From: Pseudobutyrivibrio sp.
Lineage (GTDB): Bacteria; Bacillota; Clostridia; Lachnospirales; Lachnospiraceae
DNA length: 64,000 nt
Direction of reading: 5' to 3'
Assembly: GCA_024697025.1 (NCBI GenBank)
Contig: JAILGH010000082.1
Span: forward strand, 15,551-79,550
Shown here: positions 1,344 through 51,425 of the stretch, piece by piece
Layout of the letters: the number at the start of each line of letters is the position of its first letter
Numbering within the stretch: position 1 is the stretch's first letter
Made by a program: the position numbers and the translations under genes
The notes under the pieces: model-generated
What the model was told of the DNA's origin: nothing
Database searches by the model: none
What the model saw: only the letters and a program-made list of their open reading frames with translations

Positions 1344-1379
1344 ATTTCTCCTCGTTTCTAATTATCGTATATGCGAACT

Positions 1380-1946
1380 TTATCGTCCTCCAATTGCTAC
1401 ACCTTGTTCATTGTTTGGCTGCATATAACCACCGTTCGCAAACATTATTGGTTCAAAAAATGACTCTTGTTCCTCAGTTGGGTAAGTTTTATTTTGACTA
1501 TTATCAAAACTAAGTTTCCCCTTATGATGTGGAATTTTATTCTGTTCCTGTTCCTCTGCTTTTGCTAATGCACCATTATAATTTTCTAATTTATCTAGAA
1601 AATTATTTAAAGATTCTTGCTTATCTTTAAGTTTATCTTTCCTTGGACCAGGTGCCTCATTTGCTATTTCTTTACTTAATCTTTTCAACTCTTCCTTTAA
1701 TTTTTCGATGGTCTTTTCAAGTACTTCTTTTCGCTCTTTAAGTGATTTATTCTCATTTTTAAGTGATTTGTTCTTTCCCTGATTTGTCTTTGCTTTTGGG
1801 CAGTTTATTTCCTCCATTAATAAATCCCATAAGAACGGTCCCACTATAGCAGCTAGCTCTTTAACCACTACAAGAGGTGTCTCTACAACAAATTTATTTA
1901 AAGTTCTCATTCCGTTTTGAACATCTTGATGTACATTATCTGACAT
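1380..1946 (-). CDS. Hypothetical island protein, coiled-coil K/E-rich centre
   Basis: 188-aa ORF with a good RBS (AAAGGAGATTATT-ATG), 36 nt upstream of the coupling-protein start. Its N-terminal motif is shared with the adjacent hydrolase (see findings). No recognisable catalytic motif. Confidence 0.6.
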   Translation of the reverse strand: MSDNVHQDVQNGMRTLNKFVVETPLVVVKELAAIVGPFLWDLLMEEINCPKAKTNQGKNKSLKNENKSLKERKEVLEKTIEKLKEELKRLSKEIANEAPGPRKDKLKDKQESLNNFLDKLENYNGALAKAEEQEQNKIPHHKGKLSFDNSQNKTYPTEEQESFFEPIMFANGGYMQPNNEQGVAIGGR

Positions 1947-1977
1947 AATAATCTCCTTTCTAATTACTGTCCCTTAC

Positions 1978-4182: not shown

Positions 4183-4251
4183 AGTAGGCCTTTCTATAAT
4201 CTGCTTTTTGGGTTCTTTAAACTATATTTCTTATTCATCAGCGGAAGTCAT

Positions 4252-6822
4252 TTAAGCATCTTTTTTTATCTCTTGATTGCTCTCGATATGTTTTTCTTTT
4301 TTGATGCCAGTATCATCTTTTTTTGATGCTGCCTTTTTTATTCCCGCATCAGTATTTACAAGCTTGTAAATCTCACTATCTCTGTCGATAACCATATCAA
4401 ACGGTACCGTTATAGGCCCCATTTTTAATATGCCGGTTCCACTAGGTGCATTATCCAAATATGAGAACAACGCTCGTGAAACACTAGGTAAATATTTCAT
4501 AAGTAACTCCATATCTTGAGTTGATTGAGATAACAAGAAAAAGCTCTCTGTGTTAGAAAAAATTTGTGCTAAGTTCACATCGTCTTTTGATTTCATCAAA
4601 TCACTCATATTCTGAGTGATACCAGTCATCAGACCACTCATCTTTCTAACCTCTTTCCAAAGCTTTAACACGAATTTCGCAACACACTCAATTCCTAAAA
4701 GCTCATGGAACTCATCGATATAGACATGCGTCCATTTTCCATTTCTACCATTGTTACGTATTCTGCTTCGAACCATTTCCATCATTACTACCATGGCACT
4801 GACACGGATATTTTCCTGTGTATGTGACAAATCAAATGAAATGAATCGACTATTTAGATTTACATTTGTACGATGGTTAAAGAGTGATAATGAACCATTT
4901 ACAAATGTATCCATCATTCTAGCTACGTGATTTGCGTGTGGGTCGTTCATATCTACCAAATACTGATAAATATCCTGCAACGTTGGTGAGTACTGACGTA
5001 CCTGCTCCTCAGGAGTAAGCTCTGTATATGTATCACCGCCCTCAAACATATCGCTTCGCATATGTTTTGGAACCTCAAATTCTAACGTATCCATTCCTGT
5101 TCCGTTAAGTCGTCTACGAACTGAATAATTATCCTTATAGACTCTTTCAATAGCTTTATTTAAAACAGGAAGTTCGTCTTCGTTAAGATCACGTTTGATA
5201 TATGAACTAATCAATGTCTGAATGAAATCTGACTTGTCATAAATAACACCTTCAAGGTCCGCATAATCAACTCCTGTAAAGTCTACATCCAGTGGATTTA
5301 CAAACAGTTGCTTTTGGGGGTCAAATGAAATTACTGTACCACCTACGATTCCTGCAATTTCATAATAATCCGCGTTTGGATCTATCATCAAAAACTGATC
5401 ATCCGGATATACGGTATATGAACATATTGTTTCAAGCTTAGCGGCAACTGACTTACCTGAACCAGATTGACCTAAAATCAAACTGTTTCTATTTTTCAAT
5501 TTCTTCTTGTCAGCAAAAATCGCATTGCTTGAAAGCTGATTAATTCCGTAATATACGCCTCCTATATCACATAACTCCTGTGTTTTAAAAGGCATAAACA
5601 TTGATACCGCCAGAGAAGAAAGATTGCACACATGCTTAAACTCCTGTATTCCAAGTCCAAGGGAAGTATTAATACCTTCCTTTTGTCTTGCGAAGCAAGG
5701 TTTAAACTGAATAGATTTAACACCACCGAGGGTCATAATCTTATTTTCGATTTTGGATAACTCTTCCTCATTTTCTGCTACAAATAAGAATGTAATAGTA
5801 GTATTAAAGAAATGCTGATCCTCTTCTGCAATCTCCTTTTGAAGGAACTCTATCTTCTCTTGCATACCAAGAAGCTTTGAAGAAGCATCTGACAAGAAAT
5901 CCAGCTTGTTTCGGTTACGAGTCTTTTCATTCTCGATTTTCATACCTACCTTCATATGCTTTCTTGCCAATTCTTTTTTCAAGGCATCCCTTGAAATCAA
6001 TTCATTATTTACAGAAATATATGATGTGCAGTTTAGCTGCGATAGCTTACTAACAATATCCGCCTCTAAAATCTTTGGGTATTCATTGATAAAAAGTACT
6101 TTACCAACCTTGCCATTCAATCTGAACTGCTCATTCTCAAACATAATAGAACCAGGAGCAATTGTATTTACCCAGTCGCGTCGGTTTTGTATTTCCTCTT
6201 CATAATCAAATCTAAAATTAGTATTAATACCAATATGGGTAAAGTTATATAAAAGCTGCATTCTCTCATTAACATCCAGTGGTGTTAAAGTAGAACCAGT
6301 GGTTCCATCAGCAGTCTGGTCAAGAAACGCCATTCTAATACCAGTCTCCATACTTGTGAAGTTTGACCTCGCCTCACGTATGTTTTCAGCTTTACATGTC
6401 AATGTAAAATATATCGTTTGGTATAGTCCTTGTTTAGCATCTGTTAACTTTTCAGCGATAATGCTGTTATAAGCCTTTCGAAGCTTATCTAATTTATCAT
6501 TTTCTAATGGATAAAGGATTTGCTTCTGAAACTCTTCCTCATCAACATATTCATTCGCTACGCAATATGAAAATCTACATGGGACTGTCTCTAAAACCTT
6601 GGCAAACCATCTAATGACATCTGTCTGCTCCTCTAAAGTCATACCCAAGAAATTTATATCTGATAACTTGTACTGTTTTGAAAAAAGTGAATTAGGTAAT
6701 TCAAAAATTCCACTTTCATCTATACTCACTATAGAGAAAACTTGCTGAACAGAATCAAAGTTTTCATATAAAGGTGTATCCGTGACCTTTGTCTTTGCAT
6801 ATTCTGTCAATAACCTTGGCAT
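4252..6822 (-). CDS. VirB4-family T4SS ATPase (TrsE/TcpF/Orf16-like)
   Basis: 856 aa. Walker A LGQSGSGKSV, Walker B-like HVYIDEFHELL, GITQNMSD motif. Large N-terminal domain followed by a C-terminal ATPase, as in VirB4 proteins. Strong RBS AGAGGAGG. Confidence 0.85.
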   Translation of the reverse strand: MPRLLTEYAKTKVTDTPLYENFDSVQQVFSIVSIDESGIFELPNSLFSKQYKLSDINFLGMTLEEQTDVIRWFAKVLETVPCRFSYCVANEYVDEEEFQKQILYPLENDKLDKLRKAYNSIIAEKLTDAKQGLYQTIYFTLTCKAENIREARSNFTSMETGIRMAFLDQTADGTTGSTLTPLDVNERMQLLYNFTHIGINTNFRFDYEEEIQNRRDWVNTIAPGSIMFENEQFRLNGKVGKVLFINEYPKILEADIVSKLSQLNCTSYISVNNELISRDALKKELARKHMKVGMKIENEKTRNRNKLDFLSDASSKLLGMQEKIEFLQKEIAEEDQHFFNTTITFLFVAENEEELSKIENKIMTLGGVKSIQFKPCFARQKEGINTSLGLGIQEFKHVCNLSSLAVSMFMPFKTQELCDIGGVYYGINQLSSNAIFADKKKLKNRNSLILGQSGSGKSVAAKLETICSYTVYPDDQFLMIDPNADYYEIAGIVGGTVISFDPQKQLFVNPLDVDFTGVDYADLEGVIYDKSDFIQTLISSYIKRDLNEDELPVLNKAIERVYKDNYSVRRRLNGTGMDTLEFEVPKHMRSDMFEGGDTYTELTPEEQVRQYSPTLQDIYQYLVDMNDPHANHVARMMDTFVNGSLSLFNHRTNVNLNSRFISFDLSHTQENIRVSAMVVMMEMVRSRIRNNGRNGKWTHVYIDEFHELLGIECVAKFVLKLWKEVRKMSGLMTGITQNMSDLMKSKDDVNLAQIFSNTESFFLLSQSTQDMELLMKYLPSVSRALFSYLDNAPSGTGILKMGPITVPFDMVIDRDSEIYKLVNTDAGIKKAASKKDDTGIKKEKHIESNQEIKKDA

Positions 6823-6838
6823 ATCTAAGTACCTCCTC

Positions 6839-7930
6839 TTATACGACTAGCTGTTTAACCTGACTGTTATGCATGTTTCTCATAGAATGATAATCCTTGA
6901 TACCATACGAAAAACTGCTTTCTAATACATCTGCTGTATTACCATATACAGGTGAAATTACCATATCTTCATTACTAAAGAACTTCTCGATAGAATCTAT
7001 CAATTCATCCTTTTTCTCTTCTGTCTCTGTTAGGATGACAATTGTCAAACCAACATTGATATAGTCTTTTTCAAATGACTTGAATGTTGTATTGAATTTC
7101 TTTTCAAGAACATTTTTACAATCCTCGTTCTCTTCATCTGTGTATGGCTGAATGTCTGTTACAAACATCATTGGCATATTGATTTCAAGAAGCTCCTGTA
7201 AGAAATTGGTTCCAACCTCTCCTGGATACTGTATAACCTGAAGGCACGCACCAACTCTTCCATCAATCTTGAAGCAGTCATCATTCAATGTGATTGCCTG
7301 GAATGCACTAGCTCTCCAATCGCTCTTGCGTCTAATCATTCGCTCAAAGTTTAATTCTTCTTCATCGTGAAGGAAGTTTCTCTTAACCTGATTCATATAA
7401 CTATCAAGGGATACTTCAACAATATTGATTTCGTTGCAGATTGCATTGATTTTTTCTACCTCTGCATCTAAAGTGAGCTTCACTGTCTCGTAAATCTCAG
7501 CATTTAAGAAAAACGTAATGTAATCTGTTCTGATTAGTCTGTTAGAATCTGCTAATTTAAAATTAGAAGTTATTCGTGAACGAATAGATATAACATCAAC
7601 CAATCCGTCGATAAAAAGGTTTCTGTTTTCTTCGTTCATACCCTCAATCTTATATGTTTTTACCCAATTGTTATCTGTCTTTCTGATAGTTGCCACCTTG
7701 GCATCAAATGAAATAATCCCCAACGACTCAAGAGTCTTTTTGCTTACCGGCTTGAGCATTCTGTTAAGACGCTCAATTTCCTTCTTATGCTCTTTTTCCT
7801 TTTTTCTTAAAGCTTTCTTTTCGGCTTTCTCTGCCTTTTTCTGCCTCTTAAGCTCCTTCTTATTTGCTTTGCTTTCAGCTTTCTCCTGTGCCTGCTTTAA
7901 TTTCATTTCTTTCTTTGCCATCTTATCCAT
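6839..7930 (-). CDS. Stand-alone paralogue of the VirB4 N-terminal domain (no ATPase domain), K/E-rich N-terminus
   Basis: By-eye alignment to residues ~25-430 of the downstream VirB4: IISFD/IVSID, WVKTYKI/FSKQYKL, KSDW/RRDW, FKIDGRVGACLQVIQYP/FRLNGKVGKVLFINEYP, YGIKDYHSMRNM/LGIQEFKHVCNL. The ORF ends where the VirB4 ATPase domain would begin. Confidence 0.65.
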   Translation of the reverse strand: MDKMAKKEMKLKQAQEKAESKANKKELKRQKKAEKAEKKALRKKEKEHKKEIERLNRMLKPVSKKTLESLGIISFDAKVATIRKTDNNWVKTYKIEGMNEENRNLFIDGLVDVISIRSRITSNFKLADSNRLIRTDYITFFLNAEIYETVKLTLDAEVEKINAICNEINIVEVSLDSYMNQVKRNFLHDEEELNFERMIRRKSDWRASAFQAITLNDDCFKIDGRVGACLQVIQYPGEVGTNFLQELLEINMPMMFVTDIQPYTDEENEDCKNVLEKKFNTTFKSFEKDYINVGLTIVILTETEEKKDELIDSIEKFFSNEDMVISPVYGNTADVLESSFSYGIKDYHSMRNMHNSQVKQLVV

Positions 7931-7953
7931 ATTCTTTAAATCCTCTCCATTCT

Positions 7954-9198
7954 TTAGTTTGATTTTTTATATACAATGTTAAAATTTAAACGTTTTAAAT
8001 CATAATCAAAATCTTTTATCTCTAATATTTCTTTTACACTGAAATGATCCATATGAATTAATACAAATGGTATGGATGAAATCATTTCCTCCAGCGTTTC
8101 CATTGGATAATCAGATTTATATCTAGCACACTGTGCAAGTCGTGTTACAGAACTTACCGCATCGTTACTATGTATTGTTCCTAGGAAGCGAGCACCTGTA
8201 TTTAACGCTGTAGTAAATACATACAAGGCCTCAGCACCCTTAATCTCACCAATTACAAAATTATCTATATCTTGTAACAATCCGAGCCGCAGCTCATCTT
8301 CCAATGAATACTCTGCTTTTTCTTCTCCATGGGACAATGTCATTGTGTGCTCGAACTGCATCTGCGGATGACCCTCTGAATAAAGCTCATCAGACTCCTG
8401 TGAAACTAGTACTGACTGATTGTATGGTATCCAATCCAATAACTTGTTTAATAACGAGGTCTTTCCTGAACCTCCCTGTCCTGAAACTAAAAACGCATAT
8501 CCGTTAACTATTCGATCACGGAAATACTCAATCATTTCATCGTTTACCATTCTGGCCTGTTTCAGATACTCCCAAGAATATTTGTCAGTTGGAATCTTTC
8601 GAATATGTATGTTGTATGCATCACTGGAAACAAGCTTTCTATCTTGCCAGTCAATTCGCATATAAAATGCATCTGTAGTTTTTCTATCTGTACAATATGT
8701 TGCTGCGTTGTGAATATCACCCTTTATTCGGTGTATTCGTCTAAGTCGGTTGTACCAGTCGTTATAATCTTGTTCTGATATAAATGAAAGATTTGTTTTA
8801 TATCGATTTCCGTTAGATTTGCAAACGATATGATTCCACGCAAGAACTTTTATATCTGATACATCCTCCGCATCAATTAGCGGAGTCAAAATATAATATC
8901 CAAACACTGCTGATTGAAACATATCTAAAAGTGTTTTCTTTACTTCCTCATCTAAATCTTGTAGATATTCATTTAGATATCTCTTGGCTCTTCCCATCAG
9001 CGCCAAGAAGTCCTGCTCCGTTCCCTGAACTGATTTAGCGATACTAGATTTGTTGATGTCTATAACATTTCCTTTTAGACGCTTGTATAAATTCATCAAC
9101 TCTTCATTTTGATAGTTAGACTTAACTTCATATATTTCCGAATGTAAAATGTGTTCTTTCGGGGCACTTGGAATATAATTCAACTCCGGCATGTACAT
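7954..9198 (-). CDS. VirB11/CpaF/PilB-superfamily secretion ATPase (T2SSE fold)
   Basis: LIDAEDVSDIKV, Walker A FLVSGQGGSGKTSLLNKL, Asp box VLVSQESDELY, Walker B NFVIGEIKGAEA, His box LGTIHSN. The true start may be the second ATG, at 9192. Confidence 0.8.
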   Translation of the reverse strand: MYMPELNYIPSAPKEHILHSEIYEVKSNYQNEELMNLYKRLKGNVIDINKSSIAKSVQGTEQDFLALMGRAKRYLNEYLQDLDEEVKKTLLDMFQSAVFGYYILTPLIDAEDVSDIKVLAWNHIVCKSNGNRYKTNLSFISEQDYNDWYNRLRRIHRIKGDIHNAATYCTDRKTTDAFYMRIDWQDRKLVSSDAYNIHIRKIPTDKYSWEYLKQARMVNDEMIEYFRDRIVNGYAFLVSGQGGSGKTSLLNKLLDWIPYNQSVLVSQESDELYSEGHPQMQFEHTMTLSHGEEKAEYSLEDELRLGLLQDIDNFVIGEIKGAEALYVFTTALNTGARFLGTIHSNDAVSSVTRLAQCARYKSDYPMETLEEMISSIPFVLIHMDHFSVKEILEIKDFDYDLKRLNFNIVYKKSN

Positions 9199-9283
9199 AT
9201 CCTCTTCTTTCTGTTTTGATAATTGGGGTTTTACTCTATGAGATCATCATCTATCTCCCTATCTCTACCCCTTCTATTATTAA

Positions 9284-9310
9284 TTCAAAAAAATTTTTCA
9301 TTTTTTTCCA
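9284..9310 (-). promoter_or_regulatory. Island 27-nt A7/T7 palindromic motif, copy 1 (candidate promoter/operator of the VirB11-VirB4-hydrolase-VirD4 unit)
   Basis: The minus strand reads TGGAAAAAAATGAAAAATTTTTTTGAA followed by TTAATAAT. It lies 85 nt upstream of the 7954..9198 start. Confidence 0.6.
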
Positions 9311-9442
9311 TTTTTGCAAAATTTATTACAAAAAAATTACACCCAAGACGTGCTATGCCCCATTTTTACTGGATAAATCCAATAAAATTTTTTTAATCAC
9401 TTCTTGGATGTAATTGCAAAAATTACTTTTCAAGCCTAATTT

Positions 9443-10066
9443 TTAATGTTTAAAAGTTCGACTTGACGTATTTTGTTGTACGGATTGTTGTTGCTTAATA
9501 TTTCTTCGAATAATGAAATTTGCCATTTTAATCATATTAATATATTTTAGATTCTTAACTACATTTTCTTTATTTTTTATTCGAAGATTTTCATTCAGTT
9601 GACTTATTCTAGCTCTTTCTTTCAGCCTCTGCTTTAGAAGCCTTTCCTTGTATCTCAAACGTTTTGCGATTTCATCTTTGCCAGAAACACGACGCTTAGC
9701 AGCTTGTTTGGTATTATTTTTTTGTTCATTGTAAAAAACAGGCCTACTACCAATCGATAATTCTTGTTTAATCGGTATTTTTTTGAGCTTCGACGGATTA
9801 ACAGCGTTATAAGGAATATTATCCCTTTTTGCTTCTTCACGTTCTTTTTCCTTTTTTACCCGCACTTCACTGTGCGTCATGTTATTAGGGTCCAAATCTA
9901 AGTTTGGCCGCATAGAGCCATTATTTGTCTCCGCTTGTATTACGTCATTCCTGTATATTCTTTGCTTACGTTCTAATACTTGATACTGCTGAGGATTGCT
10001 AATTGAATTATTATTTAATTCTGTGGGCTCGTCACTGCGTGTATAATCATATAAGTTATTAGCCAT
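9443..10066 (-). CDS. Hypothetical basic N/K/R-rich island protein
   Basis: 207-aa ORF with RBS ACGGAGGCTAATTT-ATG, 31 nt downstream of the preceding ORF. No TM segment, signal peptide or known motif recognised. Confidence 0.55.
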   Translation of the reverse strand: MANNLYDYTRSDEPTELNNNSISNPQQYQVLERKQRIYRNDVIQAETNNGSMRPNLDLDPNNMTHSEVRVKKEKEREEAKRDNIPYNAVNPSKLKKIPIKQELSIGSRPVFYNEQKNNTKQAAKRRVSGKDEIAKRLRYKERLLKQRLKERARISQLNENLRIKNKENVVKNLKYINMIKMANFIIRRNIKQQQSVQQNTSSRTFKH

Positions 10067-10097
10067 AAATTAGCCTCCGTATATAATGTTTGAATTG

Positions 10098-11504
10098 TTA
10101 GTGATAGCTTTGCGTTGTATTTTGACGATACAATTGAGCACTTTCGTGATTATCCTGGTTGTTGTCTATTGCAACATTATTAGTTAAATCGTTTCTTGCC
10201 GCTATTTCTGGATTTAGATTTATTGTCCTTTCTGCAATAATTCCTAATGCGATTCTATTTTCGTTTCCTTCGAGGCTATCTGGATTTAACGTTGTGTTTG
10301 GATATGGCGATTGAAAAGCACTAGCGGGACTCGAAAATGGTTGATTAAAAGTCCATCGAGGCCTATTTACAAATGTATTGTCAACATGAGGACCTACATA
10401 CTCCCCGCTTTTATTTATTGTGCCATTCATAATAGACTCACCAGCTCTATTTATTACATTATACTTTACTCCATCGCTTGTTATTTTCATTTTCATCTGT
10501 GAACCTGGTGGAATATTTAACGGCTTTCCATTAACTATAACGCAGCCACCATTTTCAAAGTTCATATTGATGTTTTTTATCTCACCGTTTCCATCCTTTG
10601 TTATTGTAGCAACTTCTTTACCCTGACTATCTTTAAGTACGTCAGAACCATCGGGATTTGATTCCATGCTCCAGTCCTCTGGATACTCAAATTCAACATT
10701 TCTATATGATTTCTTTTTCGTACGCACAGGAACATTGTTGTCGTTACTAAATATAATAGAATTATTATTTAGATTAAAGTTTTGGGCTGGATTTATGTTT
10801 CGGTCAACATATGGGTTTGTGCTTTGGTTTGGGCTTGATACAGTTTGGCTTTGATTATAATTTTCATCCTTAAACAAAATTTTCTTTAATAATCTATCTG
10901 CCTCTACCATATTAGTGTCATCACGTAATTTTCCTGCTTTACCACATGCTTCAAGAACACTCTTTTCTTCTTCAACCTCGTTTATAATTTTACTTATACT
11001 CTTAATTTTTTTATTTTCAATTTCAGATTTTTCTTTGGCCGCTGATAAACTTTTAATACTTCTATCAACTTTATTTAATCTTACTTTATACTTATCTACT
11101 GCTTCCTGTATTTTCTTTGCGTTTTCATTACCTAGATTTTTCAACGCCTCATTAATAGCTCCTACTCTTTTATCCATATCTTTGACTGCATTGGGCCCAT
11201 AGGTGATATCGGAAACATCTTGATTAACTATTTGCCTATAAATTTTATTTATTTTTTGGGATTTCTCATTCCACTCCTCTGAAAAATTTTTAATTAATGT
11301 ATCTTTCTTCTTATTGACTTTTTCTAGTTCATCATTTGAAGGAATGTTATTCTCCTTAAACTTTCTTAAAACATCCCAACTTATATTTCCTTTCTCAATT
11401 TCTGAAACTATTTTAGAGGCCAAAACCCCTTCCTCTACTCCTAAATAATTCTCGGAATCTTTTACTAAATTATCAAAATTTGTGTTTTCATTTTCTCCTG
11501 GCAT
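10098..11504 (-). CDS. Hypothetical island protein: coiled-coil N-terminal half, beta-rich C-terminal module
   Basis: The ORF track gives 10098..11570. The ATG at 11504 has a strong RBS (GGAAAGGAGATTGTGAA-ATG), and the 27-nt motif sits only 6 nt from 11570, so the shorter start is preferred. No signal peptide or TM segment. Confidence 0.6.
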   Translation of the reverse strand: MPGENENTNFDNLVKDSENYLGVEEGVLASKIVSEIEKGNISWDVLRKFKENNIPSNDELEKVNKKKDTLIKNFSEEWNEKSQKINKIYRQIVNQDVSDITYGPNAVKDMDKRVGAINEALKNLGNENAKKIQEAVDKYKVRLNKVDRSIKSLSAAKEKSEIENKKIKSISKIINEVEEEKSVLEACGKAGKLRDDTNMVEADRLLKKILFKDENYNQSQTVSSPNQSTNPYVDRNINPAQNFNLNNNSIIFSNDNNVPVRTKKKSYRNVEFEYPEDWSMESNPDGSDVLKDSQGKEVATITKDGNGEIKNINMNFENGGCVIVNGKPLNIPPGSQMKMKITSDGVKYNVINRAGESIMNGTINKSGEYVGPHVDNTFVNRPRWTFNQPFSSPASAFQSPYPNTTLNPDSLEGNENRIALGIIAERTINLNPEIAARNDLTNNVAIDNNQDNHESAQLYRQNTTQSYH

Positions 11505-11576
11505 TTCACAATCTCCTTTCCTATTACCAATATATCTTTCATTTTTATTGTGATTTTCTTTGCTATACATTTATAT

Positions 11577-11603
11577 TTCAAAAAAATTTTTCTTTTTTTT
11601 CCA
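11577..11603 (-). promoter_or_regulatory. Island 27-nt A7/T7 palindromic motif, copy 2
   Basis: The minus strand reads TGGAAAAAAAAGAAAAATTTTTTTGAA followed by ATATAAAT. It lies 72 nt upstream of the ATG at 11504. Confidence 0.6.
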
Positions 11604-11728
11604 AAATCATTAATTTTTTCTAAATTAATTGAAAAATTTTCCCATGGAAACATCAACTTTGCTTCCATGGGTAGGATTTGTTTCCTAATATTTAGTTCTT
11701 ACCAATACCTTATTAATTACAATAATTG

Positions 11729-13459
11729 TTATCGAGAGTATGCCTTAGCATTGCTTCTATATGCACTCTTTTGCTTTTCTATATATGAGTTGCACGCGTA
11801 CGAGCTTTCGCCATATGTGCCTGAATCATATCCCGATGTATCTAATGTCATATTTTCCTCCATTCTAGGCTTAATAATCTCATTATCGCTGAAATCCATC
11901 TTAAACGACTGTTCAGGAAAATCTTTATCAGTCGCCTCATAAGTCATCTTTTTTTCACCAAAATCATAATTTAACGTAAGCTCACTTTCAGATGATAAGG
12001 CGCGTGTTTTTCCACCAATATCCATATTTATTTTAACAGAATTAAAATGGGCACTAATTACTTGATTATCGATTGAAGCTACTGAACCTATTATTTGTTC
12101 ACCATTTTTTATAGTTCTTGTTTCAACTCCTGTTTCTCTGTCCAGACTATATTCGACTTCAAAATCACTTGGAATAACAAAATTATTATTCCCAATTCTA
12201 AAGTTTCGATTATCAACTGGCATCTCTTGTTCGTTTACGCTTTGAGGTTTATCAACCATCGGTTTTGCTTTCTGCTGATTATTATTTGTTTTTTCACCTA
12301 CAATAACTTGCGACTCATTTGATATTTGCTCCATTTCGGGCTTATCATTTAAATTCGTATCTATATTCGCTTGCACATCATTTGAAATATTTGTAGATGT
12401 TTCTATTTCATTTTGATTATTTTCACCCCCGTGATTATTAACCATACTGATCCATTCTACTGCTTCCACAAGGTTATTAATATCCTTAGCGGTCCATTCA
12501 TCATCTGTTATAACCGCTTTTTCCATCACATTTTCATTTATTTGAGTTTCACCAAGATTACTTGATCTTTCTGGAAGCTCAGGAGGTCCTAATTTCTCTT
12601 TTTTGTTTAATCTATCTGATTCAAACCCTTCAATCTCTTTATAATCTTTTGCTTTTAACGTGTATGAAAAATCATCATCTCCGCCCACATGCTCGCTTTC
12701 TATCCGTTCACTTGTTATTTTGTCGTTTTGAGCTTCTTCTGTTTCGGACATATTTGTATCAGGATTAGATAACAACCTGTTAGCCAATTCCAAAGTAATA
12801 TCCTTTTCCTTCTTAGTTTCTTTGTTGTTCTCCACAATTTCATGGTATTCCTCTTCTATCAGTGTTTCATCATCATCTATATTATAAATATTACCAATTT
12901 TTCTACTTAAAGCCTCTTCAAATGTCTTGCTTTCCTCTATACTACTTTTTGCTTGACCAAGATCTTTTTTTTGCTCTTCTATAAGCTGCTCATCGCTTAC
13001 TTCTCTTTTTTTACTGTTATTTGATCTGAATATTGCGCTTATTATTTTTTTGGACCTTAAAATCTTAAACAGACTTTTCCTGCGCGAATTATTTTGCGCA
13101 GACCTTATTTTACTTTTTTTATTATTAGTTGGTTTGCGCGCATAACTTGAGTTGACTTCATTCTCTATGTCTGTTAGTTTTTTTTCCCATTCTGCATCGT
13201 TTCTTATATTCTTTATTATTTCATTTCTTTCTTTATGCCGACTTATTTCTTTGTTGTAATTCTCTATTGCGTTTTTATTTTCAGCAATTAGTTTCTCACC
13301 TTTTTCTTTTTCTTTATTTGTACGTGCATAAGGCAAAATTCCTTCAATTGAACTGACATTAACTTTTAATTGGCTAATAGCCGCTCCTTTTTTAATTATT
13401 AATTCAAGATTATTTTTATATTCATCTAAATTTATTTTGTCTATTTCTTTTATACTCAT
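11729..13459 (-). CDS. Hypothetical island protein: K/E/N-rich with a C-terminal module related to that of 10098..11504
   Basis: 576-aa ORF with RBS AAAGGAGGTTAGCG-ATG. No signal peptide or TM segment. C-terminal FEVEY...IKNGE...INMDIGG resembles VEFEY...KDGNGE...INMNFENGG of the 490-aa neighbour. Confidence 0.6.
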   Translation of the reverse strand: MSIKEIDKINLDEYKNNLELIIKKGAAISQLKVNVSSIEGILPYARTNKEKEKGEKLIAENKNAIENYNKEISRHKERNEIIKNIRNDAEWEKKLTDIENEVNSSYARKPTNNKKSKIRSAQNNSRRKSLFKILRSKKIISAIFRSNNSKKREVSDEQLIEEQKKDLGQAKSSIEESKTFEEALSRKIGNIYNIDDDETLIEEEYHEIVENNKETKKEKDITLELANRLLSNPDTNMSETEEAQNDKITSERIESEHVGGDDDFSYTLKAKDYKEIEGFESDRLNKKEKLGPPELPERSSNLGETQINENVMEKAVITDDEWTAKDINNLVEAVEWISMVNNHGGENNQNEIETSTNISNDVQANIDTNLNDKPEMEQISNESQVIVGEKTNNNQQKAKPMVDKPQSVNEQEMPVDNRNFRIGNNNFVIPSDFEVEYSLDRETGVETRTIKNGEQIIGSVASIDNQVISAHFNSVKINMDIGGKTRALSSESELTLNYDFGEKKMTYEATDKDFPEQSFKMDFSDNEIIKPRMEENMTLDTSGYDSGTYGESSYACNSYIEKQKSAYRSNAKAYSR

Positions 13460-13577
13460 CGCTAACCTCCTTTATATTCCAATCCTTAATTTCTTCTTAT
13501 TACTATATATTCACTACTAAATACCAGTTATCCGACACTCGACTTTCTATAAATATCATTTAACTATTTAATTATAG

Positions 13578-13604
13578 TTCAAAAAAATTTCTCTCTTTTT
13601 TCCA
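13578..13604 (-). promoter_or_regulatory. Island 27-nt A7/T7 palindromic motif, copy 3
   Basis: The minus strand reads TGGAAAAAAGAGAGAAATTTTTTTGAA followed by CTATAATT. It lies 118 nt upstream of the 11729..13459 start. Confidence 0.6.
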
Positions 13605-13630
13605 AAATCCTTAATTTTTTTATTTAAAAA

Positions 13631-13686
13631 GTAATTCAACTCCACTTAATCTCTTATTTTTGATAGATTAAGTGGAGTTGAATTAC
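13631..13686 (-). terminator. Perfect 21-bp inverted repeat (14-nt loop); likely intrinsic terminator of 13723..14181
   Basis: GTAATTCAACTCCACTTAATC ... GATTAAGTGGAGTTGAATTAC. On the minus strand it is followed by TTTTTAAATAAAAAAA. It sits 36 nt after the stop at 13723 and just upstream of motif copy 3. Confidence 0.7.
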
Positions 13687-13722
13687 TTTATTCTCACAAA
13701 TATTCAATTATCAATTCCCAGC

Positions 13723-14181
13723 TTAAGCATTTTCTGCATTCTCTAGTCTATTAATCAGATTCTCGCATCTAGCATCGATATCGTCATAATAGTCCGGTAT
13801 GCTACTAGCCGGGGGTGAACCTATCACCTGCGCATTCAGCTCTATGTTTACATGCTGCTCATACTCTGGTGATGGATTATCGTTACGTAAGAATTTTTTA
13901 TTATCAACAATATTTTGCTCTGCTGCGTCGATGACATCCACCAGCACTTCCACCGCAGTTTGGAAGCTTCCAACAAGAGCATTTATCTGTGTTTCATTTG
14001 CATCGTTTCTACGTCGTAAAAGATTGTTTTGGGCAACTAAATAAGCGTGCACTCTTTTTCGAGCACGTAAGTTAATCTCATTCTGCAGACTATTTGCCGA
14101 ATCAACTCTTTCACGTATTCTTTCACGGCGTCTGACCATATCATCGTAAAACGCATTCGCTTTTCTGTTTTCGTATGACAT
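13723..14181 (-). CDS. Hypothetical helical R/N-rich island protein (152 aa)
   Basis: The ORF track gives 13723..14256. The ATG at 14181 (MSYENRK...) has the RBS GGGAGGATGAAAAT-ATG. Confidence 0.55.
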   Translation of the reverse strand: MSYENRKANAFYDDMVRRRERIRERVDSANSLQNEINLRARKRVHAYLVAQNNLLRRRNDANETQINALVGSFQTAVEVLVDVIDAAEQNIVDNKKFLRNDNPSPEYEQHVNIELNAQVIGSPPASSIPDYYDDIDARCENLINRLENAENA

Positions 14182-14272
14182 ATTTTCATCCTCCCGTCTT
14201 TTTGCTGTCATGTATGAATAGTAGAAGGGTGACACTAAAAATGTAGCTTTCCGCAATCACCACATTTTTGCT

Positions 14273-15166
14273 CTAGCCGAGCATCGCCTTTATATATGGG
14301 TTTTCAGTCATGTCTGTACCAAGTCGTAATATTTCATAAACATCTTCCTGTGTGAGAGCTTCCTGAAACTTATAAAGCATTCTCGAAGCTGTACTTGGAT
14401 TAATATATTTTTCTCCAGTTTCATGTTCCAAAACATACTTTGTACAGCTTTCATCTTTAATTGCTTCATCTAACACTCGTTCATCTGAAAGATATTTATA
14501 AAATGGTATAAAACCATTTTTACAGTCCAATGCCCATATTTTAAAGACAATCTTCAGCAACGGATGTGCATTTTCTAATTTATCGATCAATTTTTCATTA
14601 ACATATTCTTCCTCTGCATCGATTTTATCGATTATTGCTTCTTCAAATCCCACCGAATGCAAATCATCGTAACTATTCTCACTTAAATTTGTCTCTTCAT
14701 CATCTACTGATGTGAAGGTAACCATTTTACCGTTAGAACCGTAGTATGAAATGTCTCCTGATTTGTTTTTTACTGTAGATACAAGGTGATCATAGTCACT
14801 TTCCTTACTTCTAGCGTAAGATTGTCTTCCAGTGGATAATACAAATTTAGTTACATAAACTTCAAATGGCAGACTGCCATCATAAGGTCTTTTCTCTTTA
14901 AGCTTCTGATATTCGTCCATACAATAGAACAACAAAGCATCTAATTCGTCTCTGCTGAAAGTCTCGTATAAATGTCTTTTGTCTCTAATTCTTGCTGCTG
15001 CTACATTTGCACAGGTAAAAAATACAACTGCATCCTCCGCATCATACATGTTTCTTACCTGCTCGTTGGCCTCTGCAACATCGCTAATACCAATGGCGCT
15101 ATACGCTACATTGCTATTATTAAATCCCGCACCTTGCTTTGTTGCTGTAATAAGATGTTTTTCCAT
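14273..15166 (-). CDS. Hypothetical island protein; weak resemblance to sigma-70 regions 2 and 4 (possible transcription factor)
   Basis: 297 aa. PFEVYVTKFVLSTGRQSYARSK resembles sigma region 2.3/2.4. C-terminal INPSTASRMLYKFQEAL resembles the region 4.2 HTH (xxGTVKSRLxRARxxL). Similarity judged by eye only. Confidence 0.35.
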   Translation of the reverse strand: MEKHLITATKQGAGFNNSNVAYSAIGISDVAEANEQVRNMYDAEDAVVFFTCANVAAARIRDKRHLYETFSRDELDALLFYCMDEYQKLKEKRPYDGSLPFEVYVTKFVLSTGRQSYARSKESDYDHLVSTVKNKSGDISYYGSNGKMVTFTSVDDEETNLSENSYDDLHSVGFEEAIIDKIDAEEEYVNEKLIDKLENAHPLLKIVFKIWALDCKNGFIPFYKYLSDERVLDEAIKDESCTKYVLEHETGEKYINPSTASRMLYKFQEALTQEDVYEILRLGTDMTENPYIKAMLG

Positions 15167-15236
15167 AATTAAACCCTTTAGGATGTCGATACCTTATCCT
15201 CACTATTCTTCCTTTATTAATTCTATTATTTGTTCC

Positions 15237-16166
15237 TTATTCCTCCTTCTGGTCATATAGCCCTTCTAAATCACCTACACAGCCTACAAAACGACCGCTC
15301 TCAGTGTCTACAAAAGCATACTGACCTGACCCTATAATAGAACTCAATTCTTCCCTTTCTTCAACAATGCAATCCGTATAGTTGGATTCCATTATTCCCT
15401 TCCTATCCTTTGCAAATGCTTCAACCGCTGTTTTAGAAGCAAATAAAATAGGAATACCATCACACTGCAACACCTCACCGGTGTCTTCATTTTTCAAAAT
15501 ATGGAACTTGTTATCCTTTAACAAGTCTTTTAAATATGATGGTGTAACAATATATTCATTCCACACTGCGCTAACCGCCTCAGATACTTCCCATCCGTAA
15601 ACCAACTCACCGTCTACAGAAAATAAGATAGTATCAAGTGGAAGATTTGATATCCAGCGCTCAATGGTGTGATCACCACAACCATTTTCGGCCACCTCAT
15701 TAGCCCTCTCCTTATCAGAGAAAAATGAAATTGTAACAGGTACACCGTCTACTGGAGTTGCAATGGCTCTATTCTCCTCGTCCAATGGAACATGTAAGCA
15801 CCCGCCACCTTTATAGATATTAATTAACTTGCTTACAATGCTCTGACGCTTCTCGTAGAGCTCGTCTGTCTGTACATAAAATCCCATATTTACAATTTGA
15901 AATCCCTTGTAATTGCTATCATATAATGTATTAAATGCTGCAATGTTTGGAACATCATATTTGTAAATAGAGAAATCATAATCGTCTGGCTTATCCTTTG
16001 CGTATCTTTCGCAAAAGGCTGCCGCCTCGTCTTCATTGACCGCTGCAAAGAAAGCATTATCTTCATCTCTTAACAAGCTGCCATGAGAAACGATTAAAAA
16101 CATCGGCTTACCGACTAGAGTTTCTAACTCTTCTCTATTAATTGTTTCCATATATTCAGTTTTCAT
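15237..16166 (-). CDS. Hypothetical acidic island protein with three-fold internal module (SseB-like?)
   Basis: 309 aa. Repeated pattern DG(V/I)P(V/I)..F(F/A)S(D/K)...A.E.A (VDGVPVTISFFSDKERANEVA; CDGIPILFASKTAVEAFA; FFAAVNEDEAAAFCERYA). The family assignment is tentative. Confidence 0.35.
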   Translation of the reverse strand: MKTEYMETINREELETLVGKPMFLIVSHGSLLRDEDNAFFAAVNEDEAAAFCERYAKDKPDDYDFSIYKYDVPNIAAFNTLYDSNYKGFQIVNMGFYVQTDELYEKRQSIVSKLINIYKGGGCLHVPLDEENRAIATPVDGVPVTISFFSDKERANEVAENGCGDHTIERWISNLPLDTILFSVDGELVYGWEVSEAVSAVWNEYIVTPSYLKDLLKDNKFHILKNEDTGEVLQCDGIPILFASKTAVEAFAKDRKGIMESNYTDCIVEEREELSSIIGSGQYAFVDTESGRFVGCVGDLEGLYDQKEE

Positions 16167-16387
16167 CCTCTCTTAATATTTGCCCCTTACATAGGCATGT
16201 GCTGCTTTAACTAAACTAGTTAAACGCTACGCGCTAACGTTACTGTAGATTATACCGCTTTTTGTTCCAATAATGTACCCTTTTTTCATAATTTTGTAAC
16301 ATTTGTGACATAATTAAGAAAACATATGCAGATTTCACCCATTTTTTGTTAACATCTCTGAAAAATATTAATTTTTTATTAAAAAAA

Positions 16388-16417
16388 ATGGTCTAATCGT
16401 AAAATGATTAGACCCAT
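16388..16417 (-). terminator. Intrinsic terminator downstream of the GGDEF gene (bidirectional geometry)
   Basis: GGTCTAATC / GATTAGACC stem flanked by an A8 tract on one side and T5 on the other. On the minus strand the hairpin is followed by TTTTTTTT. Confidence 0.75.
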
Positions 16418-16502
16418 TTTTCTTTCACTTTTACTAAACTAGTTTCATGACTGTTTTCGTAAAAAACGTTTTTGTATTATTTTTGTAACATTTTGTAACT
16501 AA

Positions 16503-17792
16503 TTATTTACAGATTATTTGATTACGACCAGTCTCTTTTGCCTCATATAGGTTTTCATCGGCTCTTTTTAGACTCTCATCAGTTGATTCGCCGGGTATCA
16601 TAGCCGTCAAACCAAAGCTCATGGTAATCTGCCTGTCGGTATCTGGCACGTAAATTGTACGTATGTCATCCATAATAATAGAAAGTTCGCGCCTTGCTAT
16701 GTCAAGCTCACGGTTTTCAAATATAAGCAAGAACTCCTCTCCACCCCATCTGGCAGCAATGCCCTTGCCCATCATTCCAGCCTTTAGCTTGTCAGCTACA
16801 GCCTTTAACACAATATCACCCATTTCATGGCCATAGGTATCGTTGACCTTTTTGAAGAAATCTATGTCGGCTATGCAGATACAGTATTTAACTCCCATTT
16901 CTACAGCTCTGACACGTATATCCTCTAACTTCTTGTCGCCGTACCTTCTATTATTTAACTGGGTGAGGGCGTCGTATTCTACCAGGTTTTTGATGGCTCT
17001 TGCCATCTTTCTACCATCGGTGGCAAGGCGCTTTAGCTCGTCATCCTCCACCATAAGCTCTCTTGGAATCTCCGCATCAAACTCACCTGATGACAGGGTA
17101 TTCATGTATTTATCCATTCTGATAATTCTATTGCCTAGGCGGCGGTTGTATCCAACCATAATAACACCTATCAGTAGCGCTATAACTATGCAGGCCGTTA
17201 CAATAGGCCACATATTCTTGGCAATCTCTTTAAATACCTCGCCTTGAGTACGGCCTACGGCAATCATTCCGTATATCTGGCCATTCTCATCCCTGAGGGG
17301 CTCATAGTACGCAAAGCTCTTGTTGTCGTATACAAGCACATTATTATAGAAGTGACTCTGTCCTTCCTCTAATACGTCTTTACGAACTACAACCGCGGCA
17401 CTAGTACCTATGGCACGCTGGCCACTAGCATCCTTTAAGGTTGTTAGGAGTCTCTTGTCATCATAAAAAATTGATATATCAATATCTAGCATCTCTGCCA
17501 CATCATCAATCACAGTGTATTCGCCGTTTAGCTGCTGGTTGCCCTTGTACATCTCGTACTCGCCATCACCATCTGAATCCTCGGCCCAAAAGTCTCCTGC
17601 ATACTCATCGTCGAAAAATTTAACAGCCAGCTTGGCATCCCTGATTAACTCCTCGTGGGTGCTGTCCACAATAGTCTTGTGAATTACACTGGCACTGACT
17701 GCCACAATAACCACTGTCATAATAATCAGAGGAATCAAGGTCATCCTCATCATCTGGGTCTTTAAACTGTTTTTCAACTTGGTATATGCCAT
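16503..17792 (-). CDS. Sensor diguanylate cyclase (TM - extracytoplasmic Cache-like domain - TM - GGDEF)
   Basis: 429 aa. Hydrophobic helices LIPLIIMTVVIVAVSASVI and WPIVTACIVIALLIGVIMVGY flank ~170 aa. GGDEF domain with DALTQLNNRR and active site RWGGEEFLLIF. RBS GGGGAGGG. Noticeably higher GC than its neighbours. Confidence 0.85.
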   Translation of the reverse strand: MAYTKLKNSLKTQMMRMTLIPLIIMTVVIVAVSASVIHKTIVDSTHEELIRDAKLAVKFFDDEYAGDFWAEDSDGDGEYEMYKGNQQLNGEYTVIDDVAEMLDIDISIFYDDKRLLTTLKDASGQRAIGTSAAVVVRKDVLEEGQSHFYNNVLVYDNKSFAYYEPLRDENGQIYGMIAVGRTQGEVFKEIAKNMWPIVTACIVIALLIGVIMVGYNRRLGNRIIRMDKYMNTLSSGEFDAEIPRELMVEDDELKRLATDGRKMARAIKNLVEYDALTQLNNRRYGDKKLEDIRVRAVEMGVKYCICIADIDFFKKVNDTYGHEMGDIVLKAVADKLKAGMMGKGIAARWGGEEFLLIFENRELDIARRELSIIMDDIRTIYVPDTDRQITMSFGLTAMIPGESTDESLKRADENLYEAKETGRNQIICK

Positions 17793-17882
17793 TTATTGCC
17801 CTCCCCAATATTCTCCATAATCAAATTATTTCCTTCTAATCATAGCATACACCTAATATTATCTTTTGCAAATGCATGCTCT

Positions 17883-18647
17883 CTATATACTATTACTTCT
17901 GTGTAATCTCGCACCATTTACACCTGTTGCAGGATTGATTTCTCTCCTATTTCTATTATCTGCATAAGTATTAACACCCAATCGTACTACTGTTCCATTA
18001 AATCTATTATTTATTCGTAAAGGCATCATTGGTCTATAGCTATTAACAATATCTTGACAAAGATCCAATGGACTTCTACCATTGGAAGCTACAATTGTTT
18101 GATTGTACGTTTCCTCCATATTATTTATATATATCTCGGCATTATTTATAAAGTCGCTTGTTCTACTAATATTACGTCTATTTCGTTCGGCGAGATTCTG
18201 TAAGTTACGAACATTCCTCTCTGGAAAATTTTCAATTCTTCTTTTTCCAATTTCCCTTAAATCTTGTAATAATTCGCGTACAATGTTGGGCTGCAAATTT
18301 CGTATAGGTGTTCCTATATTGATTTGTCTTGCATTGAGAATCTGCTCTCTGTTTAAATTCTCTCTTCTAATAAATTCATTTATATCTCGTTCACATGCCT
18401 CTAATACTCTTCTATTATTGGGTCCATTAAATCCTGACTGTGTTATATTATCTATTGCATGTATATGCTGCCCTGTTGCAACCATGAACGATAACAGTTC
18501 TTCAGCTCTATTGTTATAATCTGCAATGTCATTTTCCAATTGATCCGCAAATCTCCTATACGCAGATAAATCCTCTAATGCTGAGTCTCTTAGATTTTCT
18601 AACAAATCTTTTGCTTCATCTGGACTATAATTTCTTAAATTAATCAT
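17883..18647 (-). CDS. Hypothetical R/N-rich helical island protein (254 aa)
   Basis: RBS TTAAGGAGGTATGAAAA-ATG. Preceded by motif copy 4. No known motif recognised. Confidence 0.55.
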   Translation of the reverse strand: MINLRNYSPDEAKDLLENLRDSALEDLSAYRRFADQLENDIADYNNRAEELLSFMVATGQHIHAIDNITQSGFNGPNNRRVLEACERDINEFIRRENLNREQILNARQINIGTPIRNLQPNIVRELLQDLREIGKRRIENFPERNVRNLQNLAERNRRNISRTSDFINNAEIYINNMEETYNQTIVASNGRSPLDLCQDIVNSYRPMMPLRINNRFNGTVVRLGVNTYADNRNRREINPATGVNGARLHRSNSI

Positions 18648-18699
18648 TTTTCATACCTCCTTAAATAAAACAATTTTTATTAACCGTTCCTATTACTAA

Positions 18700-18726
18700 T
18701 TCAAAAAAATTTCTTCTTTTTTTCCA
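18700..18726 (-). promoter_or_regulatory. Island 27-nt A7/T7 palindromic motif, copy 4
   Basis: The minus strand reads TGGAAAAAAAGAAGAAATTTTTTTGAA followed by TTAGTAAT. It lies 52 nt upstream of the 17883..18647 start. Confidence 0.6.
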
Positions 18727-18805
18727 CATTTTTAAATTTTTATTCCAAAATGGGGGCAAAAAAATTTTATAGAATGCACGACTTTACAATAAAAATTTTT
18801 TACGC

Positions 18806-18852
18806 AAAAAAGACTCCAGGCACCAAATTAATTGGTGCCCAGAGTCTTTTTT
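18806..18852 (-). terminator. Intrinsic (bidirectional) terminator ending the sugar ABC operon
   Basis: AAAAAAGACTCCAGGCACCAA-attaa-TTGGTGCCCAGAGTCTTTTTT, a ~15-bp stem with two mismatches. It sits 33 nt after the permease stop. Confidence 0.8.
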
Positions 18853-18884
18853 ATAAGGATTTGATTGAGAAAATGAAAGCTATT

Positions 18885-43931: not shown

Positions 43932-43944
43932 TATAAATTCACAT

Positions 43945-44117
43945 ACATGATAGCTCCCCATCTGTTAATTAGATGACAGTCATACAGCTATTGACCGTAT
44001 GCCCAAGACAAGCACCTACTGGTAATGCTCTCTTTCGGCAAAATCCCCTTTCATCTCGAATCAACTGGGCCAGCCCCATCATCGAAACTACTGATGTCTT
44101 TTGCAACCTCTACCTTT
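43945..44117 (-). promoter_or_regulatory. Lysine riboswitch (L-box) upstream of dapA
   Basis: The minus strand contains GGTAGAGGTTGCAAA ... CAGTAG ... AAAGGGGATTTTGCCGAAAG ... ACTGTCA ... TGGGGAGCTA. These match conserved L-box blocks as I recall them from B. subtilis lysC. Confidence 0.8.
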
Positions 44118-44307
44118 TATAAAGTTTGAACACATAGTACATCTTCATTCTTATTATGTCAACTATATTTGATAATAAAATTCCTAGATGTTAAAATATT
44201 TCTGTTATTACAATTTGTAATTTCTGCTTTTGAACTTTTTTATGATTTATCTTAAAACAGTTCGTTATTTACTAATATTTATTAACCTGCACAAGGAGAT
44301 TACTCAC

Positions 44308-51299: not shown

Positions 51300-51425
51300 T
51301 AGCTGTCGTAATCATCTTCTTTCATCCAGACTATACTGTCGGCTTCGGAGTTACACCGAATCATGCCTTACGGCTCGCGGGCTTTACCGCCGGTAGGGAA
51401 TCGCACCCTGCCCTGAAGATAGCTA
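51300..51425 (-). promoter_or_regulatory. FMN riboswitch (RFN element) upstream of ribD
   Basis: Minus strand: TCTTCAGGGCAGGGTGCGATTCCCTACCGGCGGTAAAGCCCGCGAGCC ... GGTGTAACTCCGAAGCCGACAGTATAGTCTGGATGAAAGAAGA. This matches the conserved RFN core. Confidence 0.9.

Follow-up and report, generated by a model that had tools for sequence, protein, structure and literature searches.

The window analysed here is a 64,000-nt stretch of contig JAILGH010000082.1 (assembly GCA_024697025.1, positions 15,551 to 79,550) from Pseudobutyrivibrio sp., and its first part holds an island with a type IV secretion system (T4SS) gene cluster on the minus strand. Four intergenic regions of this island contain a 27-nt element with an A-run and a T-run. 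What kind of signal is this element, which genes does it head and what could read it? A first-pass annotation of the window had described a palindromic site for a dimeric protein. Our comparison of the window with related elements makes it fairly probable that the 27-mer forms the core of a promoter that is dedicated and not of the sigma-A type, and that is common to the transcription units of a T4SS/conjugation-type element of Pseudobutyrivibrio and of its variable cargo.

Motif copies in the window and in related elements

The four copies lie on the gene strand and were located exactly with the coordinates and sequences quoted by the first-pass annotation. Their distances to the start codons of the genes they head also agree with the 52–118 nt given there:

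9284..9310, minus strand: motif copy 1, tentatively read as -35 TGGAAA, 17-bp spacer and -10 TGAA(T), 85 nt before 7954..9198; predicted start near 9275
1..9198, minus strand: T4SS apparatus operon downstream of copy 1 (in-window part, VirB11-like ATPase to start of VirD4), with 7954..9198 (T2SSE/VirB11-like), 6839..7930, 4252..6822 (VirB4-like) and 1978..4182 (NlpC/P60), continuing to VirD4
11577..11603, minus strand: motif copy 2, 72 nt before 10098..11504; heads the orphans 10098..11504 and 9443..10066; predicted start near 11568
13578..13604, minus strand: motif copy 3, 118 nt before 11729..13459 (orphan, low-complexity protein), which it heads; predicted start near 13569
18700..18726, minus strand: motif copy 4, 52 nt before 17883..18647 (orphan), which it heads; predicted start near 18691

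The copies fit TGGAAAAAA-N6-AATTTTTTTGAA, and with the pattern TGGAAAAAANNNNNNAATTTTTTTGAA and up to 2 mismatches they are the only matches across the 64 kb; 100 dinucleotide-preserving shuffles gave 0 matches. A weight-matrix scan was carried out with a matrix of 42 positions generated from 32 related instances. The four copies score 43–61 bits, nothing else in the window exceeds 18 bits and five shuffled windows did not exceed 10 bits. The view that no copy lies outside the island thus holds for the window, but relatives carry copies at other loci (L032/L109 and L005/L054). A fifth copy of the same island is found just past the window start, on an identical metagenome contig (L114:15099), where it heads a VirB2/TrbC-like pilin gene. 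Copies 2 and 3 share the additional stretch AAAAAATTAAKGATTT; this extra similarity had been noticed before, but it covers about 16–17 nt and not about 25 nt.

Exact-pattern scans of public sequences detected 32 loci in genome contigs and 75 in metagenome contigs, and 0 and 4 matches in viral contigs. All the viral matches and about half of the exact-pattern loci are coding coincidences, in which TGG AAA AAA ... AAT TTT TTT GAA encodes W-K-K..N-F-F-E. Coding-type matches of this kind (L002, L004, L008, L020, L025-L027, L019, L030 and L117-L120) came from unrelated taxa and giant viral contigs, and they caution that pattern-only scans of A/T-run motifs can mislead. The non-coding loci are mostly located in rumen assemblies that also hold DNA of the window organism, and they display the same architecture. 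Literature searches on the motif, on Pseudobutyrivibrio promoters and on Butyrivibrio T4SS effectors returned no description of the motif or of the T4SS.

Since our initial set of real instances was picked by eye and was circular for the box that follows the motif, two independent retests were made, one by splitting the instances by source and the other with loci retrieved by homology. T followed by a purine at motif positions 35 and 36 is present in 21 of the 23 instances from the rumen assemblies that hold DNA of the window organism, versus 7 of 41 from other metagenomes. A classifier based on stop-free frames proved too noisy in AT-rich DNA. The homology-retrieved loci were found solely through relatives of the island gene 14273..15166 and of the ATPase, and they were scanned with a loose regular expression (TGGA4+, 8-16 nt, TGAA). 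Their 219 kb contain 25 real non-redundant sites; 117 kb of control DNA contain 1 evident chance match. The unforced A8 is present in all 25 sites, and the six unforced positions of TTTTnTTGAA are conserved in 15–25 of them (22–25 without the variable n, which stands at 15/25). After GAA, T occurs at +8 in 22 sites and a purine at +9 in every one. The conserved parts are therefore TGGAAAAA, TTTTnTTGAA and a T then a purine 8–9 nt after GAA, and the central 6–7 nt vary freely and can be GC-rich (GCCGGGC, GAGGGCTG). The length of 27 nt, which had been described as fixed, is constant in the window copies and in 19 of the 25 relatives, but the other 6 have 28 nt.

The same parts were recovered from orthologous promoters. 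In an unforced alignment of the upstream regions of seven orthologous ATPase genes, whose proteins are 75–85% identical and whose flanks are unalignable, only TGGAAAAA, TT.TTGAA.TA and TAG are conserved. All scored instances face an ORF that starts 23–158 nt downstream, with co-orientation in every instance. The genes headed by the motif include the ATPase operon, the TrbC-like pilin gene (L114, L127), the relaxase and ArdC operons of L131 and many orphan genes. L131, a related element, combines a relaxase with ArdC, a zeta toxin and a ParM-like protein, and its ATPase shares 73% identity with that of the window; its three motif copies stand before a 364-aa gene and before the ardC and relaxase operons. 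The orthologous conservation, the enrichment in these elements and the fixed orientation and gene distance indicate a shared cis element under selection.

These data also bear on the idea that no specific factor is involved, bent UP-element-like A/T tracts boosting weak sigma-A promoters and the copies being alike through recent cassette duplication. More tracts are indeed present upstream of the motif (AAA at -17 to -15, TTT at -10 to -8), and the same 27-mer (TGGAAAAAAATCAAAAATTTTTTTGAA) occurs at L011:1170-1196, in an unrelated metagenome-assembled genome (MAG) of the Acutalibacteraceae, where it takes the place of the UP element in a canonical TTGATT-17-TATAAT promoter ahead of recA and is probably present by chance. 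We consider such an origin very unlikely, because TGG, TTGAA and TAG are invariant across orthologous promoters with unalignable flanks and proteins just 75–82% identical, the information sits in the G positions and usable sigma-A hexamers are lacking.

Each window copy occupies an intergenic gap, and shortly upstream of it lies a strong hairpin with a stretch of U's after it. The hairpins fold at -26 to -46 kcal/mol (z -4.9 to -8.1), and a terminator scan also called one of the four:

9335..9415, minus strand: terminator-like hairpin then U-run, ending about 25 nt upstream of copy 1 (minimum free energy -36.6 kcal/mol, z -4.9)
11641..11671, minus strand: terminator-like hairpin upstream of copy 2
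13628..13689, minus strand: 25-bp terminator-like hairpin and U-run upstream of copy 3 (z -8.0)
18805..18853, minus strand: 22-bp terminator-like hairpin from the upstream ABC-transporter operon, ahead of copy 4 (z -8.1)

Such a hairpin with a T-run precedes all four window copies and at least 17 of the 32 non-redundant relatives. This agrees with the proposal of the first-pass annotation that the copies head four transcription units, and the shared motif places 17883..18647 in the island regulon, as had been proposed too. The folds of the 27-mers themselves reach no more than -1.7 to -3.0 kcal/mol, values equalled by 3–30 of 200 shuffles, and no Rfam family was matched inside the island. Their weak folding indicates that they are DNA signals heading insulated transcription units and neither intrinsic terminators nor other RNA structures. 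An RNA-level element (an A7/U7 hairpin attenuator or processing site) or a mobile-DNA repeat (a miniature inverted-repeat transposable element or an att-like site) would be compatible with an A-run and a T-run that are able to pair and with copies at cassette boundaries where strains differ. In addition to the weak folds, the copies cease to resemble each other no more than about 17 nt upstream and 15 nt downstream of the motif, without terminal repeats, and if transcription starts at the purine at +9 the element would lie outside the RNA. We regard explanations of this type as extremely improbable.

In the sister strain L058, a DNA identity of 89–93% over window positions 13747-19052 ends at the terminator before copy 3 (window 13628-13692) and the cargo genes downstream of it differ, which suggests that the terminator-promoter junctions are cassette boundaries. 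Between the copy-4 gene and the 5' module of the island lies a GGDEF and sCache diguanylate cyclase gene (16503..17792), possibly transcribed together with that gene from copy 4. Its identity is 99.8% with L058 and 87% with L028, and that of its neighbours just 58–89%. A riboswitch or cyclic di-GMP link to this gene was rejected, since the island has no Rfam match.

Proposed promoter geometry and tests against known classes

In the geometry that we propose, the -35 element would be TGGAAA(AA), the spacer would be A-then-T-rich and 17 bp long (18 bp in the 28-nt variants), and the -10 element would be (TT)TGAAT, followed by an AT-only discriminator of 6 nt. Initiation would take place at the conserved purine 9 nt after GAA, with the conserved T before it; if this purine is +1, TGGAAA would occupy -35 to -30 and TGAATT -12 to -7. 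The constant 27 nt would then correspond to 6 nt of the -35 element, 17 of the spacer and the first 4 of the -10 element.

A different -10 had been suggested by the first-pass annotation, namely the box directly after each copy. The boxes it quoted are correct, and they belong to a conserved AT-only stretch with the consensus tTATAAAT (T29 78%, A30 81%, A33-34 81%), but they do not appear to serve as -10 elements. In two L131 copies (L131-509 and L131-5990) a Shine-Dalgarno sequence (SD), GGAGG, is located at +11..+16 after GAA. A start 6–8 nt past the TAnnAA box would land in this SD, so that transcription has to start at or before +10; the box is thereby excluded as -10 in these copies, and +9 fits. 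The box never pairs A-11 and T-7 in register, T35 going with T31 and not with A, and position 34 is mostly A. Its register also slips by 1 nt in the 'GAAtag...' variants, in which T35/R36 stay fixed relative to GAA. Judged by its sequence, tTATAAAT is a poor -10.

The same observations apply to a sigma-A promoter that uses the TAnnAA(T) box as its -10 and in which a class-II activator sitting on the 27-bp element (-40 to -14) compensates for the missing -35. It would account for the TA-rich box after every copy and for the absence of a -35 17 bp upstream of that box, and activator-dependent promoters without a -35 are common, for example the PmrA-box promoters of Dot/Icm genes and the ComR boxes. 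The SD position in L131, the lack of a box with both A-11 and T-7 in register, the shift in the 'tag' variants and the T-7 found in the host sigma-A promoters of the window all speak against it, and we consider it possible but rather improbable. TTGAAN was also tried as the -35 of a promoter further downstream and was rejected, for lack of a consistent -10 behind it and because the SD lies too near. Contig ends in public assemblies were uninformative for 5' ends; one Logan contig begins 16 nt after GAA.

Two riboswitches serve as anchors from which host sigma-A promoters of the window can be recognised. The FMN and lysine riboswitches (51310-51424 and 43943-44120, minus strand) are each located behind a TTGACA-17-TAnnAT promoter, the two sequences being TTGACA-17-TACAAT and TTGACA-17-TACTAT. 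Against TTGACA-17-TATAAT the motif copies show mismatches at 4–5 of the 12 positions, and a promoter scan made no call at copies 1, 3 and 4 and found one 9/12 site within copy 2; the copies are thus not canonical sigma-A promoters, in line with the earlier remark that they lack a canonical -35. The sigma-H consensus RNAGGAWWW-N11-12-RNNGAAT gave 3–4 mismatches at N11/N12 and 2–4 at N14, the spacing of the motif being 2–3 bp longer, and the sigma-54 consensus TGGCAC-N5-TTGCW (GG and GC 10 bp apart) gave 4–6. Among regulator sites, the CodY box AATTTTCWGAAAATT differs at 4–5 positions and the Spo0A box TGNCGAA at 1–2 of 7. For the ComK AT-box (AAAA-N5-TTTT pairs) the half-site shows 0–2 mismatches, which is trivially expected from the runs, and the second box is absent. 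The motif could be assigned to none of these classes.

The reading as a dimer-binding palindrome with A7/T7 symmetry was not supported by these comparisons. Only 14–18 of the 27 positions are self-complementary, all of them in the A/T runs; G2, G3 and G25 break the symmetry, and the invariant ends TGG and GAA are not complementary (TGG versus TTC). A7/T7 and the purine core decay in relatives, and TGGAAAAA and TTGAA stay. The specific bases are thus asymmetric and the element is directional. This also affects the possibility that the 27-mer is an operator over weak promoters for a dimeric element-encoded repressor, a global regulator of the plasmid type with the A7/T7 arms as half-sites. Conjugative plasmids as a rule have global repressors that act on multi-copy operators (IncP KorA/KorB, R388), the A-run and the T-run are conserved where the search did not force them, and one L131 copy (L131-1972) contains a perfect 9-bp inverted repeat, AAAAAAGCC-g-GGCTTTTTT. 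On the other side, a symmetric site would not need the single orientation to the gene seen in all instances, the T-run is broken in several orthologues (TTTTATTGAA, TTTTTGTTGAA) in which TGG and TTGAA persist, and the absence of a sigma-A promoter would be left unexplained. We consider a repressor operator quite unlikely. The inverted repeat of the L131:1972-1998 copy results from its GC-rich core, and this copy could double as a weak bidirectional terminator.

The putative factor, the secretion system and its cargo

A G at the -11 equivalent together with TGGAAA at -35 would be a poor substrate for the sigma-A holoenzyme, from which we infer a dedicated specificity factor for the proposed promoter. 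The first-pass annotation had likewise seen factor-dependent promoters or operators of one island regulon, and a dedicated factor appears to be the likeliest reader. This element-associated factor would direct RNA polymerase either as a very divergent sigma-like protein or as an activator that replaces the recognition of -35 and -10, and its own expression would come from a separate sigma-A-type promoter. It would turn on the machinery (the ATPase/VirB4/VirD4 operon and the pilin operon) and the cargo at the same time, every unit being an insulated terminator-promoter cassette. Two genes of the island are relevant here:

14273..15166, minus strand: candidate cognate factor, a genus-restricted 297-aa protein; not motif-driven; found in all examined motif-bearing elements in which this region is covered
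15237..16166, minus strand: leading gene of the conserved 5' module; the L130 homologue is driven by the motif, and at other loci a sigma-A-type TGTTACAAT extended -10 precedes the homologue

The product of 14273..15166 is 100% identical to an NCBI protein from a Pseudobutyrivibrio MAG. Its homologues were found in Pseudobutyrivibrio only, with 17 matches among 5.8 billion proteins, and an exhaustive HMMER profile search detected 10 among 1.84 billion representatives. They accompany the motif in L028, L033/34, L036, L058, L130, L131 (which is relaxase-bearing) and L132, and in none of these loci are they motif-driven. By this co-occurrence 14273..15166 would be the best candidate for the factor. 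It was one of two binding candidates named in the first-pass annotation; the other, 13723..14181, is motif-driven in L087 and L089, and, like 15237..16166, it therefore looks like a target. Several relatives display in the 5' module the sigma-A-type signals TTGAC(A/T/G)-17-TAnnAT and the conserved extended -10, which fits a two-tier cascade.

Several points weigh against a promoter read by such a factor. The start at +9 is deduced from sequence comparison. The A-run and the T-run are strongly conserved inside the supposed spacer, which is unusual for sigma promoters, and these tracts could be read by a protein. To our knowledge, a G at the -11 equivalent has a precedent only in sigma-H/ComX-type -10 elements, which have another spacing. 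L035 contains genes similar to 14273..15166 and 15237..16166 and no motif within 20 kb. In phmmer searches with sigma seeds, no sigma-70-family gene was detected in or near any element in 0.93 Mb of loci, the sole match being an unrelated ECF sigma in the chance locus L014. For 14273..15166, neither Pfam nor a profile search of the PDB gave a match, and its AlphaFold model is of low confidence (predicted local distance difference test, pLDDT, 62). The best Foldseek E values with this model were 1.9 (PDB) and 0.23 (viral, BFVD), and hhalign against ECF sigmas gave a probability of 0.8%, with PFEAY..F aligned to 'F..WL..I'.

The candidate thus shows no recognisable sigma-2 or sigma-4 domain of the sigma-70 family by sequence or fold. 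Sigma factors recur among the non-significant Foldseek matches in both libraries, and from the model a sigma-like nature of 14273..15166 would be a lead only. Pfam identified nothing regulatory among the island proteins, the neighbours in relatives and the motif-headed proteins. A separable module, formed by the C-terminal 60 residues of 14273..15166 (YINPSTASKLLYKFQ...NPYL), is found again at the end of P0022 (315 aa), an otherwise unrelated low-complexity protein. The AlphaFold model of 15237..16166 (pLDDT 50) was too poor for a structure search. GTTACAA repeats are present upstream of this gene (window 16290-16500), and in five relatives (L033:8943, L035:6926, L036:8948, L127:1659 and L132:5855) TTGTTACAATC, which reads as a sigma-A extended -10 (TGnTACAAT), is found about 90 nt before its homologue.

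The T4SS cluster spans window positions 1-9198 and L114:10604-19552. Pfam matches in the window correspond to a T2SSE/VirB11-like ATPase, a VirB4-like ATPase and an NlpC/P60 hydrolase, and those past the window start, on L114, to a VirD4-like coupling protein, two TrbL/VirB6-like proteins and a TrbC/VirB2-like pilin, the TrbC match (25.3 bits) being under the Pfam cut-off of 27.9. By Pfam, these genes (VirB4, VirD4, VirB6/TrbL, VirB2/TrbC pilin, hydrolase and VirB11-like ATPase) form the set of a conjugative-type T4SS. No relaxase was found in the approximately 29 kb of the window and L114. A relaxase adjoins the ATPase in L131 and in L128 and L129 (ATPase about 60% identical), and in other Firmicutes ATPase relatives at about 60% identity have a relaxase alongside and the motif is absent. 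In several Pseudobutyrivibrio loci the cluster lies at one common chromosomal site, after a GtrA-family gene.

The remaining motif-headed genes of the window belong to no Pfam family, and motif-headed products in general are very diverse low-complexity orphans. The mean net charge of their last 20 residues is +2.4, versus -0.1 for the host ORFs of the window (Mann-Whitney p = 3e-4). The set with basic tails comprises the products of 17883..18647, 11729..13459 and 9443..10066 and motif-headed proteins of L032, L038, L047, L055, L057, L058, L080 and others. Substrates of VirB/D4-type systems carry basic C-terminal signals, and the tails of the motif-headed proteins are compatible with T4SS substrate signals. 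A bolder and doubtful proposal is that the motif delimits the whole regulon of a T4SS that is fixed in the chromosome of a Gram-positive-type rumen commensal and has no relaxase nearby, that the dozens of hypervariable, low-complexity orphan products are translocated T4SS substrates (effectors) and that the promoter is read by 14273..15166 as a new RNA-polymerase specificity factor, restricted to this genus and too divergent to be recognised.

In related strains, toxin- and immunity-like genes (Mbeg1-like/phospholipase-like, Tox-HNH-HHH and SMI1_KNR4) are located directly beside the homologues of 14273..15166 and 15237..16166, at L035:11602-14314, L033:11602-14244, L036:11600-13957, L127:4315-6828 and L130:8388-9887. 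In L035, a YukD gene is present about 10 kb upstream.

The motif offers a computational and experimental handle on a family of T4SS elements that is unstudied and belongs to an abundant rumen genus. It allows a prediction of the orphan genes that share expression with the T4SS machine, and it defines a 45-bp fragment for the pull-down of the factor that reads it. If the factor were a new sigma-like protein, the known diversity of promoter recognition would be widened, and secretion of the motif-headed proteins, if true, would make theirs a rare case of an effector-type T4SS regulon in Firmicutes. For annotation, the 27-nt palindrome would be better described as a promoter geometry than as a dimer site.

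Comparison with known regulatory boxes

The closest functional parallels are the hrp box of the Pseudomonas syringae type III secretion system, read by HrpL (GGAACC-N15/16-CCACNNA), and the PmrA box of the Dot/Icm T4SS genes and effectors of Legionella and Coxiella. Like the motif, both are short and directional, have a fixed distance to the start site and stand in place of a housekeeping -35. They head apparatus operons and scattered, fast-evolving genes of unknown function, and they can be used to find regulon members. The -35 half of the motif contains GGAA, as in ECF-type boxes. The differences are that the motif is found in Gram-positive-type Lachnospiraceae, that its consensus is another one and that no recognisable ECF sigma or response regulator is located nearby.

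The promoters of Bacillus subtilis sigma-H (RNAGGAWWW-N11-12-RNNGAAT) and the streptococcal cin-box of the ComX type (TACGAATA) have in common with the motif a -35 in which A/T follows GGA, and a GAAT-based -10 whose -11 equivalent is G. In the motif GG and GAAT are 21 nt apart, compared with 18–19 nt in those promoters, and the motif has T, not A, before GG; no sigma-H-like gene was detected by phmmer in related loci. The IncP-1 KorA/KorB and R388 networks resemble the motif in having many copies before most transfer and establishment operons of one element, as seen in L131 (relaxase, ardC and one more). Those sites are true palindromes over sigma-70 promoters and are bound by repressors, whereas the motif is asymmetric and has no sigma-A promoter.

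The host sigma-A promoters, finally, are like the proposed promoter in having two blocks, a spacer of 17–18 bp, a start about 7 nt after the -10 and upstream A/T tracts, but their hexamers are TTGACA and TAnnAT and those of the motif would be TGGAAA and TGAATT. On these comparisons, we classed the motif as a lineage-specific promoter class of a mobile-element-derived regulon.

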